Source: a virus (taxonomy: Duplodnaviria; Heunggongvirae; Uroviricota; Caudoviricetes). Taken from it: a stretch of 6,117 nt of DNA. Below, piece after piece: positions 1 to 6,117 of this stretch. The stretch's first letter is position 1, and each line of letters starts with the position of its first letter. Made by a program: the position numbers and the translations under genes. The stretch lies in IMG/VR virus record IMGVR_UViG_2700989486_000022. One strand, 5' to 3'. The notes beneath the pieces are model-generated. The model had not been told where the DNA came from. It did not search any database and worked only from the letters and a program-made list of their open reading frames with translations.

Positions 1-171
1 ATTTCCCTCGTGGCTGTCAATCATGTAGCGACCATCAATAACAATCTTTCCGTCAGCGAGCTGCGGTACAGGCAGGGATTTCAGGTACATGTCATAACGA
101 TCACGCACGCGAGCGGCAAGATCACGCTCTGTGTTGAGCAGGTATTCAAGAAAGTCGTTGGCGAGAATCAT
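1..171 (-). CDS. hypothetical protein, N-terminal 57 codons only (gene continues past the left edge)
   Basis: ATG at 171-169 preceded by AAGAGGA about 8 nt upstream; reading frame open to position 1; uses preferred E. coli codons (CGT/CGC/CTG), unlike the overlapping + strand frame. N-terminus MILANDFLEYLLNTERDLAARVRDRYDMYLKSLPVPQLADGKIVIDGRYMIDSHEGN; no family recognised. Confidence 0.5.
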   Translation of the reverse strand, partial: MILANDFLEYLLNTERDLAARVRDRYDMYLKSLPVPQLADGKIVIDGRYMIDSHEGN

Positions 172-243
172 TGCGGCAATCCTCTTGTTACAGATGTGCG
201 AAGGCCTCCCGCCGCAAGGTGCAGGAAAGGCCCGGAACAGGAA

Positions 244-474
244 TTAATGGAGTTTGTTTTGCTGCTGGACGAGATCCTGAAGAGACAGGAGGTCTTCCGC
301 CAGATAGCTGAATACAGCGGCGCAGTAGTCGGCTGAAATAGTGCTGTTGAGTCTGTGCAATGTGTTGGATTGCATGATAAAGGCGATGTGTGCAGCGCGG
401 GTGAGTCTGCGATCGATTTCAGTCTGGATGTGACGACGTGCAGCGTATGCGCGCTGTTGTTTGCGGTTTGCCAT
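244..474 (-). CDS. hypothetical small basic protein (76 aa)
   Basis: ORF-track ORF; ATG at 474-472 with AGAGG about 7 nt upstream; good codon usage (CGC/CGT Arg); basic N-terminus (MANRKQQRAYAARRH); lies downstream of a - strand terminator so appears to be its own unit together with the gene at 1-171. Confidence 0.55.
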   Translation of the reverse strand: MANRKQQRAYAARRHIQTEIDRRLTRAAHIAFIMQSNTLHRLNSTISADYCAAVFSYLAEDLLSLQDLVQQQNKLH

Positions 475-484
475 GGTGTGGCCT

Positions 485-703
485 CTTTGGTTGTAAGTTT
501 TGAAAACTCACCATCCAGAGGTGGAAAACTCGGGGTGGTGAGACGTACAGGGTTTCCACAACCGGCAACCAAAGAACCCGGCCCGACCGAAGTCGGCCCC
601 ATACGCCCCACCATAATTCGTGTGCGAAAAAGACGTGGCGATACGGTACGCACAAAAAAACCGCTGGCGCGGTTGTGCGCTTTGGTTGTCAGCGGGGTGG
701 AAA
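485..703. repeat. Three copies of a bipartite motif CTTTGGTTG-(spacer)-GTGGAAA in a non-coding region: direct at 485-527 (27-nt spacer containing the palindrome AGTTTT-G-AAAACT at 496-508), inverted at 552-574 (6-nt spacer), direct at 680-703 (8-nt spacer)
   Basis: Read directly from the sequence: ctttggttg at 485-493 and 680-688, with its reverse complement caaccaaag at 566-574; gtggaaa at 521-527 and 697-703, with reverse complement gtttccac at 552-559. No convincing ORF on either strand in 475-794. Confidence 0.5.
652..676 (-). terminator. Candidate rho-independent terminator for leftward (- strand) transcription
   Basis: On the - strand: AACCGC-GCCA-GCGGTT hairpin (+ coords 659-674) immediately followed by a run of 7 T (+ strand A-run 654-660); located about 120 bp downstream of the stop of the 183-aa gene. 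Confidence 0.5.
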
Positions 704-794
704 TCCCGGCACCCGTTTTATGAGGTGCAGCGGAAATGTAACCTGACTGATTGCGGCATGGCAAGCGGTTTTTTTGTGTGTGCATAATGCTCAT

Positions 795-1346
795 TCAGTT
801 TGGAAGCAGCTCGTATAACAGGGCGTCGGCGGCGGTTCGGCGGTTGTAAAGCCACCATGCTGTGCTGTATGCCACCTGTATCCCTGTGATTTTGTATATA
901 TGTCTGCTTATTTCCCTGAATGGCATGCCGTGCCCATCACGCAATTCAGTTACCAGATGAACAATATGATCGTCGTATTTAGCAGCATGATGTATGCCTC
1001 CACACTTCATTGCGCTGTAACCACGATCGCGGAGTATTTTTTGTATGGTGCATTTGCTACATTTCATTTCCCGTGCCATATCCCTCTTACTTTTTCGGTG
1101 GCGGTTGCTGATTATTTCTGCTATTGCCTTTTCATCCAGCCGCTGGCGTTTCCGCCCAATCAGCCCTCGCTTGCGCAAGGTGATAATGCGCTGCCCCGTT
1201 GCATGAAATGAGCGATTAAGTCTGGATGTTATTTCCCTGATGCTGTGTTTCTGGTACATGCTTATCAGCAACGCATCTTCCTGTTTCGTCCATTGTTTAA
1301 CGTGTCTGGGTGCCTGACCGGGGATGCCCATTGGTTTGAGTTTCAT
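795..1346 (-). CDS. putative DNA-binding protein with three helix-turn-helix-like segments (183 aa); function unknown
   Basis: ORF-track ORF; ATG at 1346 with AAGGGAG about 9 nt upstream; three segments with HTH/Myb-like character (KQWTKQEDALLISMYQK..ITSRL; AIAEIISNRHRKSKRDMAREMKCSKCTIQKIL; MPFREISRHIYKITGIQVAYSTAWW); last gene before the terminator. Confidence 0.7.
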   Translation of the reverse strand: MKLKPMGIPGQAPRHVKQWTKQEDALLISMYQKHSIREITSRLNRSFHATGQRIITLRKRGLIGRKRQRLDEKAIAEIISNRHRKSKRDMAREMKCSKCTIQKILRDRGYSAMKCGGIHHAAKYDDHIVHLVTELRDGHGMPFREISRHIYKITGIQVAYSTAWWLYNRRTAADALLYELLPN

Positions 1347-2156: not shown

Positions 2157-2535
2157 CAATGAATGCGACTTGAGAGCGCTCTATCAGGCGGAGATTTGTC
2201 AGAATTTCTGATTCCCTTATGGGGTGAGGAGTGATCAGGTATTTATCCTGTAATCCGACGATAATGGTGTATTGCTGTGGCTCCGAGCCAATTGTGTAAA
2301 TAAGGCGTCCGGTGTTAGACAAATCCAGTCCGGTGACTGGTTGTGTTCTGAGAACCGTTAGTTCAGCATCCTGTTTTTCGATAATTTCGGCTGCTTCGGC
2401 GGTTACTCTTGCTATCATCATGGCTGTGGTGGCAGGCCCAATCATTCCTGCATTTGTTGCATCCTGAATGGCTCTGTTTGCGGTCTCCGATATATTTTTT
2501 AGCGCAGTTATAATGCCTTTTTCTTTTGCGTTCAT
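2125..2535 (-). CDS. hypothetical protein (136 aa)
   Basis: ORF-track ORF; ATG at 2535 with GGAGA about 6 nt upstream; no family recognised. Confidence 0.65.
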   Translation of the reverse strand: MNAKEKGIITALKNISETANRAIQDATNAGMIGPATTAMMIARVTAEAAEIIEKQDAELTVLRTQPVTGLDLSNTGRLIYTIGSEPQQYTIIVGLQDKYLITPHPIRESEILTNLRLIERSQVAFIDDAQRTVFNA

Positions 2536-2628
2536 TTTTGTATCTCCATTATTTACGTGTGTGAATGCCTCCGTTAATTCGGATGGTTTTCACGTTTTCT
2601 TATTTAATCTGGTGTTTTATTTGTGCTG

Positions 2629-2742
2629 TTATTCGTCAGAGAAAAAACGCTCAATCTTTTTCACTGAATGAATAATTCGCATAATGCCAATAGCGCAGAT
2701 CACCGAAATAATCAGAATAAGCCACGAAATAAATATACTCAT
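2629..2742 (-). CDS. candidate small hydrophobic (single-pass membrane) peptide, 37 aa: MSIFISWLILIISVICAIGIMRIIHSVKKIERFFSDE
   Basis: Not in the ORF track (too short). Hand-translated: ATG at 2742-2740 overlaps the TGA stop of the 80-aa gene (ATGA), GGGGAA about 6 nt upstream, TAA at 2631-2629. Hydrophobic core followed by a charged tail. Sits in a visibly AT-rich segment. Confidence 0.35.
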   Translation of the reverse strand: MSIFISWLILIISVICAIGIMRIIHSVKKIERFFSDE

Positions 2743-2981
2743 GCGATATTCCCCAGCTTATACGGTTCAATGTGTTCCCCGCATTCTGCGGCACAGATCA
2801 GCTCGGAAAGTTCGTTAAGTGCATCCAGATCATCAGCGTAAAAAGCAACGTCATACAAACTCCGGATTGCCCTGGTCAATGAGTCACGGGCTGCACGTTC
2901 AGCATGAGCGCCTGATGCACTTAAGCGAAAATAAAAACGCTCAAGTGCTTTGTTAATGAGAGTTTTATATTCTTTGCCCAT
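2739..2981 (-). CDS. hypothetical protein (80 aa)
   Basis: ORF-track ORF; ATG at 2981, AAAGGG about 8 nt upstream; 11-nt gap after the preceding gene. Confidence 0.6.
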   Translation of the reverse strand: MGKEYKTLINKALERFYFRLSASGAHAERAARDSLTRAIRSLYDVAFYADDLDALNELSELICAAECGEHIEPYKLGNIA

Positions 2982-2992
2982 CGCAACGCCCT

Positions 2993-3280
2993 TTAATCTG
3001 CTTTCTGAATTTCAGTTTCTGAATCCATACAAATAATTTCGATATAGGGTTTATCGCCATTAGCCTGGCGTGCCTTTTCAGCTTCACTAATGATTTCTCG
3101 TACGGTCTGGTACGGAAGTTCCACAAGCAGTCGCGTGCCGTTCAGATAAACGTAAGTGGCTTCGTTGGCTCCGTTTTTACCCGCCGGAGCCACTCCATCA
3201 ATAGCGGATGCGCGTAATAACAGTTCACCGCGAAAATCAATAAAACGGATAAATACACCTTGTGCATGCTCTTTGGTCAT
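2993..3280 (-). CDS. hypothetical protein (95 aa; start taken at the internal ATG 3280 rather than the ORF-track start 3340)
   Basis: ATG at 3280 has AGGTG about 6 nt upstream and begins 10 nt after the stop of the 116-aa gene; the longer ORF-track version would overlap that gene by 50 nt. Confidence 0.6.
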   Translation of the reverse strand: MTKEHAQGVFIRFIDFRGELLLRASAIDGVAPAGKNGANEATYVYLNGTRLLVELPYQTVREIISEAEKARQANGDKPYIEIICMDSETEIQKAD

Positions 3281-3290
3281 AACGCACCTG

Positions 3291-3641
3291 TTATAAATCA
3301 GCCTGTTTAATAAAACTTTGCCCGCGAAGCAGACGATCAACCGTGCGAAGTGCTTCGTATAATGTGAAATCCTGCCCGAATTGATTGTCGCCGCAGCTCA
3401 ATGCAAAAATGCGGTTTCCGGTAAACGGATTGCGTGGGCATTTGTGGACCACGATCCCGGCTTTCTCAATCAGCCAGGCATGCTCGCCGATTTGTTTTAC
3501 TGGGTAGCCATCCGGCGTTGCGTGTGTTTCGCTCAGGCTGTAGCGAGAGCTGCTACGTGATGCGCTGGTAGCGAAACGGTTAGCATGACGTTCCGCCCCG
3601 TTGCGGAATCGCTGCTGTGAAGAATTGCGCCGTTCCTTCAT
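3291..3641 (-). CDS. hypothetical protein (116 aa) with Arg/Ser-rich basic N-terminus
   Basis: ORF-track ORF; ATG at 3641 with GGAG about 12 nt upstream; 37 nt downstream of the cox-like stop; N-terminal 35 residues are low-complexity basic (RRNSSQQRFRNGAERHANRFATSASRSSSRYS). Confidence 0.6.
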   Translation of the reverse strand: MKERRNSSQQRFRNGAERHANRFATSASRSSSRYSLSETHATPDGYPVKQIGEHAWLIEKAGIVVHKCPRNPFTGNRIFALSCGDNQFGQDFTLYEALRTVDRLLRGQSFIKQADL

Positions 3642-3678
3642 ATCAAAATACTCCGCCTAAAATGAATTATGGTTTGAG

Positions 3679-4104
3679 TTATGCTGCTTTACCGCTGATA
3701 TTTCTGTTTCGTCTGCCACTTGTTGGCTTAAACAAAAACAGACGGTTTTCCCAGTCGTGCCATTCCTGAGGTGCGTTTTCGATGAGGCGATCGCATGCTT
3801 CATCCCACGCTTTTCTGTTGATGTAGAGTTCAGCGTTTCCGCCAGGTTTAAGAGGGTCCGCCATATACACCGCAGGTAGCTTTCCTGCTTTGGCCATGCT
3901 TACGATGGCATCAACGGTCTTTCCGATATACATCGCAAATCCTTCTTTTGACAGGAGATGCGAGGGATTTTCTGAAAGTCGAATTTCTTCACGTTCACGT
4001 GCTTTGCGTCCTGTTTTTTGATGCTCACCTTCTGGCATTTCTGACAGGTGATCGCATCGTGTTCCGCAAAGTGACTCAGGCGCGTTTTGAGTGCTTTCTT
4101 GCAT
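3679..4104 (-). CDS. cox: Cox-like excisionase / early-operon regulator with an N-terminal extension (141 aa)
   Basis: First gene of the leftward operon, divergent from the C-type repressor as in P2. The C-terminal 85 residues (FAMYIGKTVDAIVSMAKAGKLPAVYMADP...WHDW) resemble my recollection of P2 Cox (FAKLIGK...GKLPVIDMTDP...DGW). ATG at 4104 has a strong GGAGG 7 nt upstream. An alternative internal start at 3933 (AAGGA upstream) would give 84 aa. Confidence 0.7.
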   Translation of the reverse strand: MQESTQNAPESLCGTRCDHLSEMPEGEHQKTGRKAREREEIRLSENPSHLLSKEGFAMYIGKTVDAIVSMAKAGKLPAVYMADPLKPGGNAELYINRKAWDEACDRLIENAPQEWHDWENRLFLFKPTSGRRNRNISGKAA

Positions 4105-4219
4105 CTGATATCCTCCGCTATTGGTGCTCTCTTCTAACTAGCACCATTTAGAACTAGTTAGCGCAATTCGTTGTGTGTTAATTGATATATAAACTAAGTG
4201 AGTTAACTTACTATGTCAA
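4105..4219. promoter_or_regulatory. Lysogeny-switch control region between cox-like and C genes: candidate overlapping divergent promoters and an operator-like inverted repeat
   Basis: Seen in sequence: 8-bp perfect inverted repeat CTAACTAG (4134-4141) / CTAGTTAG (4154-4161) with 12-bp spacer; + strand extended -10-like TGATATATA (4183-4191) upstream of the C start; - strand TTGACA (4219-4214) spaced 17 bp from TAGTTT (4196-4191). Promoter assignment is inference. Confidence 0.45.
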
Positions 4220-4512
4220 CTACCGTAGCTATGAAAATTCGCATCATGCGGAAGTCAGAAATGCTTACACAAGAAAAAATGGCAGAGATTACTGGGCTTA
4301 CTCTTGCTGCATTAAGGCAATATGAGCAAGGACGAAATGAACCCAACCTTGAGTCAACAAAAAAGCTTCTGAAAGCCCCCATGTTCCGTAAGTACCGCGA
4401 CTGGTTTTTGTTTGATGAAGTTGAACCCAAGGCCGGGCAGGTTGTACCGGCTCTCGCACACATTGGGCAAGGCGAAGTGGAATCATCCCGCTCCGGCAAG
4501 AAAACTGGTTAA
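4213..4512 (+). CDS. P2 C-type immunity repressor (99 aa)
   Basis: ORF-track ORF; same length as P2 C and aligns with it along its length as I recall it (MS..KI.LMRKSE.L...A..TG......YE.GR..P ... P.F.KY..WF ... GQ..PALAH.GQ.E..S.SG.KTG); directly upstream of and co-oriented with the integrase. Confidence 0.85.
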   Translation: MSTTVAMKIRIMRKSEMLTQEKMAEITGLTLAALRQYEQGRNEPNLESTKKLLKAPMFRKYRDWFLFDEVEPKAGQVVPALAHIGQGEVESSRSGKKTG

Positions 4513-4578
4513 CGGTTCACCAGGCATTTATTTCCCAGAGCTGTGATCAAGATGATGTTTTCATTGGAGGGCTTCCTT

Positions 4579-5574
4579 ATGTCGATTAAGAAGCTCGCTA
4601 ATGGCAAATTTTGTGTGGACGTGCGGCCTGCTGGATCAGAAGGAAAGAGATTCAGGCGGCGATTTGATACTCGTGGTGAGGCTGTTTTGTATGAGCGTCA
4701 TGTATTGCAGCATTACCACGACAAAGACTGGGTTGATAAGCCAACAGAACGGCGGTCGCTGAGGGAGCTACTGGATTGTTGGTGGTTGTATCACGGTAAA
4801 AATCATCCTTACGGTGCGATGGAGCGAGTGCGTATTGCTGCGGTCATTAGTGATCTTGAAAGTATTAATGTTACACGCAGTGATCAACTTACTCGTAAAA
4901 ACATAATTAATTATCGGTTATTGTTGCTTAACCGCGGAATAAAACAATCCACGGTTAATCGTTATTGCGCAATGATGAGTGGTTTTTTCACAAAACTAAT
5001 TGACGCAGAGGAATATTCTGGGGCTAATCCGTTTCATGATGTGAAAAAACTTAATATCAAACAGCCTGAAATGGCTTATTTGTATCATGAAGATATTCCA
5101 CGATTACTGGAGTTGTTATCTGGTGATGAATTAAAAGCCGTCTTGTTGTGTCTGGCAACAGGTGGAAGATGGAGTGAAGTTGCAAATATCAAGGGGGAGC
5201 ATGTTATTAGCGGCAAAGTCATTTTTATGGAAACAAAAAATGGGAAGCGTCGCGTTATACCTATATCGTCAGAACTGGAGTGCATGATTAAGACGAAGGC
5301 TACTGGTCGTTTAATTTATCCGAGTTATGCCGCTGTCAGAACGGCTATCAGAAAGGTGAGACCCGATCTTCCTGAAGGGCAGTCGATACATGTTTTACGG
5401 CATACCTTTGCCACTCACTTCATGATTAATGGCGGGAATATCATCACTTTGCAGAGAATACTTGGGCATAGCACTATTCAGCAGACGATGACTTATGCCC
5501 ATTTTGCACCAGATTATCTGCAGGATGCTGTGCGCTTTAATCCTGTGGCTGAGTTGTCCAGATATTGCCCATAA
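4579..5574 (+). CDS. int: P2-family tyrosine integrase (331 aa from ATG 4579; the ORF track begins at an upstream GTG 4543)
   Basis: N-terminus MSIKKLANGKF..VDVRP matches P2 Int MAIKKLDDGRYEVDIRP; catalytic-region motifs HVLRHTFATHFMINGGNIITLQRILGH and YAHFAP are present; GGAGG 8 nt upstream of ATG 4579. Confidence 0.9.
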   Translation: MSIKKLANGKFCVDVRPAGSEGKRFRRRFDTRGEAVLYERHVLQHYHDKDWVDKPTERRSLRELLDCWWLYHGKNHPYGAMERVRIAAVISDLESINVTRSDQLTRKNIINYRLLLLNRGIKQSTVNRYCAMMSGFFTKLIDAEEYSGANPFHDVKKLNIKQPEMAYLYHEDIPRLLELLSGDELKAVLLCLATGGRWSEVANIKGEHVISGKVIFMETKNGKRRVIPISSELECMIKTKATGRLIYPSYAAVRTAIRKVRPDLPEGQSIHVLRHTFATHFMINGGNIITLQRILGHSTIQQTMTYAHFAPDYLQDAVRFNPVAELSRYCP

Positions 5575-5700: not shown

Positions 5701-5865
5701 CTCGCGATTTTTTTTTGTAACTTTTCCATCTTTTGCTTTTCTCTCCGAGCCGCTTTCCATATCTGCAATCGCATAAAAAACTCTGCTGGCGTTCACAAAT
5801 GTGCAGGGGTAAAACGTTTCCTGTAGCACCGTGAGTTATACTTTGTATAACTTAAGGAGGTGCAG

Positions 5866-6117
5866 ATGCGTATTACCATAAAAAGATGGGGGAACAGTGC
5901 AGGTATGGTCATTCCCAATATCGTAATGAAAGAACTTAACTTACAGCCGGGGCAGAGCGTGGAAGCGCAGGTGAGCAACAACCAACTGATTCTGACACCC
6001 ATCTCCAGGCGCTACTCGCTTGATGAACTGCTGGCACAGTGTGACATGAACGCCGCGGAACTTAGCGAGCAGGATGTCTGGGGTAAATCCACCCCTGCGG
6101 GTGACGAAATATGGTAA
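5866..6117 (+). CDS. chpS: ChpS (ChpBI) antitoxin of the ChpB-ChpS toxin-antitoxin pair, MazE/AbrB-type (83 aa)
   Basis: Protein MRITIKRWGNSAGMVIPNIVMKELNLQPGQ... matches E. coli ChpS as I recall it; AAGGAGG 5 nt upstream of ATG 5866 (the ORF track begins at GTG 5860); stop TAA at 6115-6117. Confidence 0.9.
   Translation: MRITIKRWGNSAGMVIPNIVMKELNLQPGQSVEAQVSNNQLILTPISRRYSLDELLAQCDMNAAELSEQDVWGKSTPAGDEIW
6111..6117 (+). CDS. chpB: First codons of chpB toxin gene (ATG GTA A.., M-V-K), overlapping the chpS stop; truncated by the window edge
   Basis: ATGGTAA at 6111-6117 gives the ATGnTAA overlap typical of coupled antitoxin-toxin pairs; identification relies on established knowledge that chpB follows chpS, since only 7 nt are visible. 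Confidence 0.35.

Follow-up and report, generated by a model that had tools for sequence, protein, structure and literature searches.

In phages P1 and P7 the antisense RNA c4 provides a second layer of immunity beside the protein repressor and controls an anti-repressor, and the two phages differ in specificity through compensatory changes. Citron and Schuster reportedly described in 1990 that the c4 patches a′ and b′ match targets both upstream (a1 and b1) and downstream (a2 and b2), with b2 said to lie over the ribosome-binding site of the first open reading frame (ORF) of the immI region. In the satellite P4, a seqA leader and the CI immunity RNA sit directly upstream of kil, epsilon, orf151, orf106 and alpha. 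Relatives of these two RNAs are detected by the Rfam isrK and C4 models, and the P4 ORF eta is coupled translationally to the gene upstream of it, its translation preventing termination and letting transcripts escape immunity (PMC10111431). For the isrK–orf45–anrP unit of Gifsy-1 in Salmonella, the published model casts IsrK as a trans-activator (PMC4825925); Hfq binding and activation of the read-through mRNA in trans are known from Gifsy-1 only. Phage P2 has an early operon in the order cox, orf78, B, terminator, orf80–83 and A, in which orf83 is the ORF immediately upstream of A and overlaps its start; neither an isrK nor a C4 RNA was found in the P2 genome. Here we analyse the minus strand of positions 1–794 in a 6,117-nucleotide (nt) stretch of viral DNA (IMG/VR record IMGVR_UViG_2700989486_000022; this whole stretch is called the window), which belongs to a P2-family prophage of the phage P88, or Xuanwuvirus, type. 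The region is homologous to the P4 immunity region and analogous to P1 immI and Gifsy-1 isrK–anrP, and it is probably a second, RNA-based immunity and commitment switch that gates an epsilon-like gene, an Orf83-like gene and the replication gene A.

An initial annotation made from the letters of the window alone had noticed a separate leftward unit of two genes here, and the unit is indeed present: a terminator (674–654) follows a 183-amino-acid (aa) gene, a structured region comes next, and then a 76-aa ORF and an ORF that runs off the edge, each with its own Shine–Dalgarno sequence. Its separateness is supported by a promoter-like site of its own, downstream of the 183-aa gene. What had been missed is that the structured region consists of two known RNA families and that a 208-codon ORF (794–168) overlaps the whole unit. 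For sequence past the left edge of the window we used a 99.7% identical copy, locus L001, from Escherichia coli BEC1-S17-ESBL-09. The features of the region, referred to together as the cassette, and of the genes on either side are the following.

795–1346, minus strand: gene for a 183-aa helix-turn-helix (HTH) DNA-binding protein, from the ORF list; the last gene before the cassette
168–794, minus strand: eta-like ORF of 208 codons that extends over the promoter, the two RNAs and the entire 76-aa gene, to which it is in frame +1
735–764, minus strand: sigma-70-like promoter, TTGCCA-18-TACATT, positioned like PLE of P4
654–728, minus strand: isrK-like leader RNA (Rfam RF01394), counterpart of the P4 seqA region
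674–654, minus strand: terminator-like hairpin AACCGCGCCAGCGGTT followed by T7, from the terminator scan
531–618, minus strand: C4/CI-type antisense RNA (Rfam RF01695)
244–474, minus strand: 76-aa epsilon-like ('derepression') gene, Shine–Dalgarno AAGAGG at 487–482
1–171, minus strand: edge ORF, the first 57 codons of a 121-aa gene, Shine–Dalgarno AAGAGGA at 186–180

The structured region (728–465; minimum free energy (MFE) −105 kcal/mol, z = −4.1 against 200 shuffles) is an isrK-like leader followed by a C4/CI-type antisense RNA. The leader scores 64.3 bits on RF01394 (gathering threshold 50; E = 2 × 10−12) and carries at its 3′ end an intrinsic terminator hairpin with U7, at 674–654; the antisense RNA scores 80.5 bits on RF01695 (gathering threshold 45; E = 3 × 10−15) and covers the full model, 1–87. 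A scan of positions 1–1400 returned 5 terminator-like sites, compared with 1.5 ± 1.1 in shuffled sequence. The 5′ end of the leader lies about 7 nt downstream of the promoter-like site (764–735), whose −35 and −10 hexamers are kept in an alignment of relatives, some loci having another spacer between them. The RNAs and the promoter are arranged as in P4, in which the same two Rfam families occur in like order and spacing (isrK model 8692–8615, C4 model 8507–8420; the CI RNA region scores 74.9 bits on RF01695) and the equivalent promoter, TTGCCT-17-TATAGT, is found in the same place. The P1 and P7 antisense RNA is of the same Rfam family as well. A retron or reverse transcriptase was considered and rejected: no retron RNA family matched, and the genes downstream are epsilon-like, Orf83-like and gpA.

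We aligned the 296 nt upstream of the 76-aa ATG in 52 distinct modules and found the region conserved apart from six short hypervariable patches, which in the window are as follows.

703–697, minus strand: a1, UUUCCAC, in the loop of the second isrK hairpin
688–680, minus strand: b1, CAACCAAAG, in a single-stranded stretch ahead of the terminator
574–566, minus strand: b′, CUUUGGUUG, in the C4 hairpin loop
559–553, minus strand: a′, GUGGAAA, immediately 3′ of the C4 hairpin
527–521, minus strand: a2, UUUCCAC, downstream of C4
493–485, minus strand: b2, CAACCAAAG, overlapping the Shine–Dalgarno sequence of the 76-aa gene (AAGAGG, 487–482); counterpart of P4 seqC

Among the 52 modules, 15 variants of b′ and 6 of a′ occur in 25 combinations, and the targets change along with them. 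Mean duplex energies computed with RNAduplex are lower for cognate than for non-cognate partners in all four pairings: −11.7 versus −4.6 kcal/mol for b′ with b1, −13.8 versus −6.2 kcal/mol for b′ with b2, −15.5 versus −10.0 kcal/mol for a′ with a1 and −10.5 versus −5.5 kcal/mol for a′ with a2; the window's own b′ and b2 give −14.8 kcal/mol. In 50 of the 52 modules no b1 pairs better with b′ than the module's own, and for b2 this holds in 49; the observed total stability was reached by 0 of 10,000 permutations of these related sequences. With four covarying pairings, one of them on a ribosome-binding site, the a′ and b′ patches of C4 are predicted to pair with a1 and b1 in the leader and with a2 and b2 downstream. 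As in P4, the CI/C4 loop is complementary to one upstream site and to one downstream site at a Shine–Dalgarno sequence, and the layout as a whole is one that we take to be the design of P1 (a1b1, a′b′, a2b2) and of P4 (seqA, seqB, seqC). The geometry is alike in P4, in a Stx2a-converting phage and in the window, with b2 abutting the Shine–Dalgarno sequence of the first ORF in all three; the words themselves differ (in P4, UUCACAGG / CCUGUGAA and GUGAGAA / UUCUCAC).

That Stx2a-converting phage (locus L004, minus strand of 3340–4227) carries an isrK–C4 cassette 73.5% identical to that of the window, which forms the 5′ end of a 283-aa ORF holding Rha-type anti-repressor-like sequence. The RNA cassette thus moves from one phage family to another and is coupled to different anti-repressors.

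Downstream of b2, both ORFs of the unit are real genes, as the initial annotation had supposed, although its description of them as unknown no longer applies. In 33 distinct homologues of the 76-aa gene the variable columns fall on codon positions 1, 2 and 3 in the ratio 26/28/46, and the protein matches PHROG 3688 over its full length (E = 2 × 10−36). It is 33% identical to P4 epsilon, the 'helper derepression protein', over 51 aa (BLASTP, E = 7 × 10−9), and an alignment of 24 members of its family aligns with P4 epsilon over 63 columns from residue 1 (hhalign probability 96%, E = 3.5 × 10−9). Most relatives at 57–79% identity carry the Pfam family 'Derepression' (PF25738) and the NCBI name 'derepression protein'. 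By these comparisons the 76-aa protein is a homologue of P4 epsilon. A search of PDB sequences gave no significant match, and an AlphaFold2 (AF2) model (predicted local distance difference test (pLDDT) score 82) is a two-helix hairpin, a fold that matches indiscriminately in structure searches. A P4 epsilon-like gene was noted in 2009 in the P2-like prophage Sp13 of E. coli O157 Sakai and was tentatively tied to the unexpected inducibility of that prophage by mitomycin C (PMC2669165). The O157:H7 prophage locus in our collection carries the cassette and fits the description of Sp13.

The 208-codon ORF connects this unit to its neighbours on both sides. Its ATG directly follows the stop codon of the 183-aa gene without a gap (TGA ATG, 797–792), and its own TGA overlaps the ATG of the 121-aa gene (ATGA, 171–168). 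The part that lies over the RNAs (aa 19–113) matches the Pfam family Phage_ASH (PF10554; 29.7 bits, cut-off 26), a family that derives from the P4 ORF spanning CI, that is, from eta; like eta, the ORF is long, covers promoter and RNAs and abuts the gene upstream. The frame is open in all of the approximately 60 distinct loci and ends on, or 11 nt beyond, the ATG of the downstream gene, which holds for three types of downstream gene. Over the 296-nt RNA region, stop triplets number 155, 0 and 101 in the three frames (at 13, 0 and 15 alignment columns), the zero being that of the eta-like frame, which is stop-free even within the hypervariable patches ((2/3) to the power 28, about 10−5). Where it overlaps the 76-aa gene it is stop-free in 33 of 33 distinct sequences, compared with about 26% expected from synonymous-codon shuffles, and its amino-acid sequence is there the least conserved of the three frames. 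A frame that is always open, yet whose amino acids are the least conserved, seems to be maintained so that it is translated, and not for the sake of the protein made. The initial annotation had the early operon end at the terminator, which is probably half true: the terminator is there, but the eta-like ORF runs through it, and the equivalent in P4 lets upstream transcripts read through.

Phage_ASH in this locus marks the eta-like frame over the RNAs, and the family of epsilon is PF25738. The match spans window positions 455–740, and the Prokaryotic Genome Annotation Pipeline (PGAP) calls L001 12516–12785 an 'ash family protein' pseudogene. In a 2021 survey that took Phage_ASH as its epsilon marker, no P4-specific gene other than delta/ogr had clear homologues in P2-like phages (PMC8628076); P2-family prophages with the cassette would score epsilon-positive for the wrong reason in satellite detection based on Phage_ASH. 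The eta-like ORF has no kil-like nested C-terminal segment, and holds the epsilon-like gene in another frame instead. Variants of the ORF were seen at both ends. At four loci (L010, L014, L022 and L032, about 4300–4667) a 1-nt indel fuses the eta-like frame to the 121-aa gene, giving ORFs of 336–346 codons, which suggests that the junction tolerates or exploits read-through translation. At L048, L081 and L084–L086 the frame starts farther upstream, at an ATG near −805, and has 374–377 codons; these loci retain both promoter hexamers (−35 and −10) around a replaced spacer, and their RNAs lie inside a larger protein-coding gene, as they do in P4 and in lambdoid Rha/Bro-type genes.

Beyond the left edge of the window, the cassette leads into gene A. 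The edge gene, complete in L001, encodes 121 aa and matches PHROG 3237 (E = 1 × 10−53), and 6 nt after it begins the gene for a 940-aa gpA (8977–11799; Pfam Phage_GPA, PF05840, E = 9 × 10−130). The gene order is the same in P88 and in the O157:H7 prophage, and in 80 IMG/VR contigs retrieved with the 76-aa protein gpA (50–98% identical) follows after exactly one small gene wherever the DNA suffices. The expectation that the unit takes the place of the continuation into a replication gene has therefore failed, because gpA comes directly after the 121-aa gene in L001 and follows in every related locus with enough DNA. Two other judgements of the initial annotation stand: the edge gene is neither a P2 A-type initiator nor a reverse transcriptase, and the plus-strand ORF at 10–336 looks like an antisense shadow, matching no family and being interrupted in 4 of the 31 distinct relatives. 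The edge gene as replication initiator is rejected, being a 121-aa ORF with gpA as the next gene. An ordinary P2 arrangement, with A on the left and a small P2-family ORF before it, is borne out in part: A does follow and the small ORFs are conserved phage genes, but the edge gene is not A, and the 76-aa gene is of P4 type and not of P2 type.

The 121-aa protein is read as the P88-group counterpart of P2 Orf83, to which it would be remotely related, and it is probably accessory to A. On its own it matches nothing in Pfam, NCBIfam or the PDB. DUF5405, the family of P2 Orf83, is matched by 5 of 11 aligned members of the 121-aa family (best E = 9 × 10−6), and the family aligns directly with Orf83 over 49 columns with an hhalign probability of only 55% (E = 1 × 10−4). 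An AF2 model (alpha2-beta4-alpha2, pLDDT 68) gave no convincing structural match in the PDB; weak matches in BFVD include a DUF5405 protein. The protein shows no similarity to P4 orf151. At other loci its slot is filled by proteins of 129/139 aa and 137/138 aa, which are full-length remote homologues (21–22% identity, E about 10−6 to 10−7). A scan of contigs with the 121-aa protein returned a single locus, from E. albertii, by an exact-word method that reaches close relatives only. Directly downstream of gpA lie ParM- and ParR-like partition genes (L001, 7622–8900; L003, 625–1900; L168, the O157:H7 prophage, 2451–3729), which hints at a plasmid-like maintenance stage, as in P4.

Compared with P4, the cassette also has an epsilon homologue followed by a replication gene. 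The two differ in that the host element here is a complete P2-family phage and P4 a satellite, in that the replication gene is a P2-type gpA here and the primase alpha in P4, and in that kil is absent here, the epsilon-like gene standing directly at the seqC-like site. Here that gene lies in another frame inside the eta-like ORF, whereas in P4 the end of eta/kil coincides with the start of epsilon; nothing here corresponds to orf151, and the specificity words are entirely different. From P1 and P7 the cassette differs in its downstream proteins, which are epsilon-like and Orf83-like here and the unrelated Icd and Ant there (immI consisting of the c4 RNA, icd and ant), and in that it also precedes a replication gene. 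With the P2 early operon the prophage shares a P2-type C repressor and Cox, and a small, putatively DUF5405-related ORF immediately upstream of the Phage_GPA gene; the isrK and C4 RNAs and the epsilon-like gene are absent from P2. A putative rho-independent terminator is annotated in P2 between B and orf80 (L087, 2481–2508, corresponding to P2 26980–27007), so the P88 group is not alone in having an internal terminator ahead of the A-proximal genes.

From these features we propose the following course of events. By analogy with P4, P1 and Gifsy-1, the internal promoter at 764–735 would be constitutive and would produce the leader, most transcripts stopping at the isrK terminator, and those that read through would yield a stable C4/CI-like RNA. 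Through b′ and a′ this RNA would pair with a1 and b1 in the leader and with a2 and b2 downstream, as the covariation indicates. Pairing at b2 would cover the Shine–Dalgarno sequence and block translation of the epsilon-like gene, and polarity or premature termination would keep the Orf83-like gene and A silent in the lysogen; acting in trans, C4 would do likewise to superinfecting phages of the same a/b type. Once the early promoter Pe is active, ribosomes that have finished the 183-aa gene may, as for P4 eta, re-initiate at the adjacent eta-like ATG and translate across the terminator, C4 and its targets to end on the ATG of the 121-aa gene. Pe transcripts would thereby become resistant to both termination and immunity, with translation coupled into the 121-aa gene and on toward A. 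Homology to P4 epsilon suggests as a last step, and the weakest, that the epsilon-like protein inactivates the P2 C-type repressor and so reinforces lytic commitment. The initial annotation had entertained a regulatory module as one of two options, and the unit is one: an RNA pair of P4 immunity type with an epsilon homologue.

Several points weigh against this proposal. All of its functional consequences are extrapolated from P4, P1 and Gifsy-1, and the intrinsic terminator could simply end the early operon. The window's own 76-aa protein falls below the cut-off of PF25738 (22.3 versus 27 bits, E = 1 × 10−4). Variants of the epsilon-like protein are not matched to variants of the repressor: proteins 98–99% identical to that of the window co-occur with C proteins at 29–39% or at 100% identity, and the 68% epsilon-like cluster co-occurs with C-type repressors or with an unrelated 134-aa regulator, a comparison in which many loci have no repressor inside the flank but which speaks against the phage's 'own repressor' as a tightly specific target. 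Because the sequences share ancestry, the permutation and frame statistics overstate significance; the 15 b′ and 6 a′ variants are nevertheless distinct events. Matching is not absolute either, since the recombinants L024 and L082 carry a C4 that mismatches their own targets. Finally, in Gifsy-1 the short IsrK RNA is an activator and not part of a repressor circuit (PMC4825925).

This last point leads to the strongest of the alternatives, a circuit of Gifsy-1 type, in which the IsrK-like RNA would open a ribosome-binding site in trans by pairing with a C4-like mRNA segment and turn on the downstream genes under stress, the C4 segment being mainly a cis-inhibitory mRNA structure and not a free repressor RNA. 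In Gifsy-1 itself, IsrK supplied in trans raises anrP translation about 140-fold and orf45, with which it pairs, starts at two AUGs 12 nt apart, at +107 and +119 (PMC4825925). The cassette resembles it in several ways, having an isrK-family leader with terminator read-through, two in-frame AUGs inside the 5′ end of the C4 match (614–612 and 602–600, like the pair in orf45), an AUGA stop/start overlap onto the next gene and an anti-repressor as output, and in the MFE fold of the read-through RNA a1 and b1 pair with a′ and b′ in cis. The ORF here has 208 codons instead of 45, and the first product is epsilon-like and not a large AnrP. What such a circuit leaves unexplained is that the covariation of a2 and b2 with C4 is as tight as that of a1 and b1 and that b2 lies on the Shine–Dalgarno sequence, which is the classic geometry of the P1 and P4 repressors. 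We consider it unlikely as a replacement for the immunity switch; with the leader acting as a decoy for C4 it is compatible with that switch, and is a refinement of it more than an exclusive rival.

Considerably less probable still is that the prophage captured the cassette, as what was left of a P4-like satellite or as a recombinant patch of recent date, and carries it passively or uses it only in conflict between helper and satellite. The RNA cassette and epsilon are otherwise hallmarks of P4, and the cassette's mobility between phage types, as seen from its identity to that of Stx2a phages, would fit such an origin. The prophage has no other P4 gene (alpha, sid, psu, delta or P4-type int), however, and a large and diverse group of complete isolated phages, P88 among them, has the cassette at one fixed position. 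The P4-like satellites in our collection (L088–L167) have CI specificities made up of 7 b′ and 3 a′ variants in 13 combinations, and between 79 of these and 59 P88-like loci no b′ loop, a′ word or combination is shared, which gives no sign of cross-immunity between satellites and P88-like phages. The window's a′ (GUGGAAA) has its exact reverse complement in one satellite a′ word, UUUCCAC, so that the two immunity RNAs could pair in principle; this counts for a link to satellites, and it may be coincidence.

A self-contained accessory unit of moron type, or a non-canonical module for replication that replaces the continuation into A, for which the promoter-like site, the upstream terminator and the absence of such a cassette from P2 could be cited, is highly improbable and largely refuted by the position of gpA 6 nt after the 121-aa gene, by the order cassette, small gene, gpA in 80 viral contigs, by the presence of the cassette in about a fifth of complete E. 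coli genomes (below), by components that are homologues of P4 regulators and by the eta-like ORF that ties the unit translationally to the genes on both sides.

At a query coverage of at least 80%, the cassette occurs in 1,135 of 5,426 complete E. coli genomes (~21%). This frequency, together with its synteny with gpA, establishes the cassette as an ordinary conserved feature of the P88 phage group, and not as the accessory cargo that had been one of the initial options. Each of its components belongs to a described family, and an epsilon-like gene in a P2-like prophage had been noted before. In the searchable literature we found no description of a complete P4-type immunity cassette before gpA in complete P2-family phages, of its combinatorial repertoire of specificities or of an epsilon-like gene nested in an eta-like read-through ORF. 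Hallmark functions of P4 (RNA immunity through CI and seqA, read-through by the eta ORF and the anti-repressor epsilon) are thus present in complete P2-family phages too, which bears on their origin in P4. We put forward a wider reading more tentatively, and rate it as somewhat short of an even chance: that P88-type phages possess a full RNA immunity of P4 type with at least 25 specificities, which decides superinfection immunity and gates A in place of the C repressor alone; that a long ORF is translated in them only to defeat termination while overlapping an anti-repressor gene in another frame; and that the immunity region and epsilon of P4 are shared with, or derived from, the lineage of its helpers. 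If true, this last part would contradict the view that delta/ogr alone is shared (PMC8628076).

Two 'hypothetical' genes and an unannotated gap become, on this account, a testable regulatory circuit in a very common group of E. coli prophages, including the degraded one of O157:H7. The combinatorial a/b patches offer a clean natural data set on RNA–RNA recognition and on how immunity types diversify. The cassette may also account for the inducibility of some P2-like prophages (P88 and Sp13), P2 itself being non-inducible.

Two IMG/VR loci depart from the general pattern of matching. In L024 the C4 loop b′ fits neither its own b1 nor its own b2, and in L082 the leader patches a1 and b1 are of another type than C4 and the downstream targets; both cassettes occupy about 300 nt upstream of an epsilon-like gene at about 4001. 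Both could be variants that are insensitive to immunity or that have a hybrid immunity.

The window as a whole is the attachment-site end of the prophage, which is inserted beside chpS-chpB-ppa in E. coli. Its closest isolated relatives are Citrobacter phage Shae_phiSM (96%) and Escherichia phage P88 (91%; Peduoviridae, Xuanwuvirus). The remaining genes of the window are these.

3679–4104, strand opposite to that of the repressor: Cox gene (4104–3679)
4213–4512: repressor gene
4543–5574: integrase gene
5865–6117: chpS, a full ORF, its stop codon forming the final three bases of the window

The repressor aligns over its full length with the crystallised P2 C protein (PDB 2xcj; E = 2 × 10−25). 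Downstream of cox runs a series of small leftward early ORFs, the last of which is the 183-aa HTH gene; its product matches PHROG 323, 'transcriptional regulator' (E = 1 × 10−23), and the Pfam families HTH_32 and HTH_38 only below cut-off. The prophage is integrated directly next to the chpS-chpB toxin–antitoxin locus. The O157:H7 prophage (L168), which lies beside yecA, is a degraded P2-like element in which an IS3 element truncates the sequence after parMR. It retains the cassette, the Orf83-like gene and gpA, and has a different switch (a 134-aa regulator and an Apl-like protein); it probably corresponds to Sp13 of O157 Sakai, which was reported to be inducible by mitomycin C.

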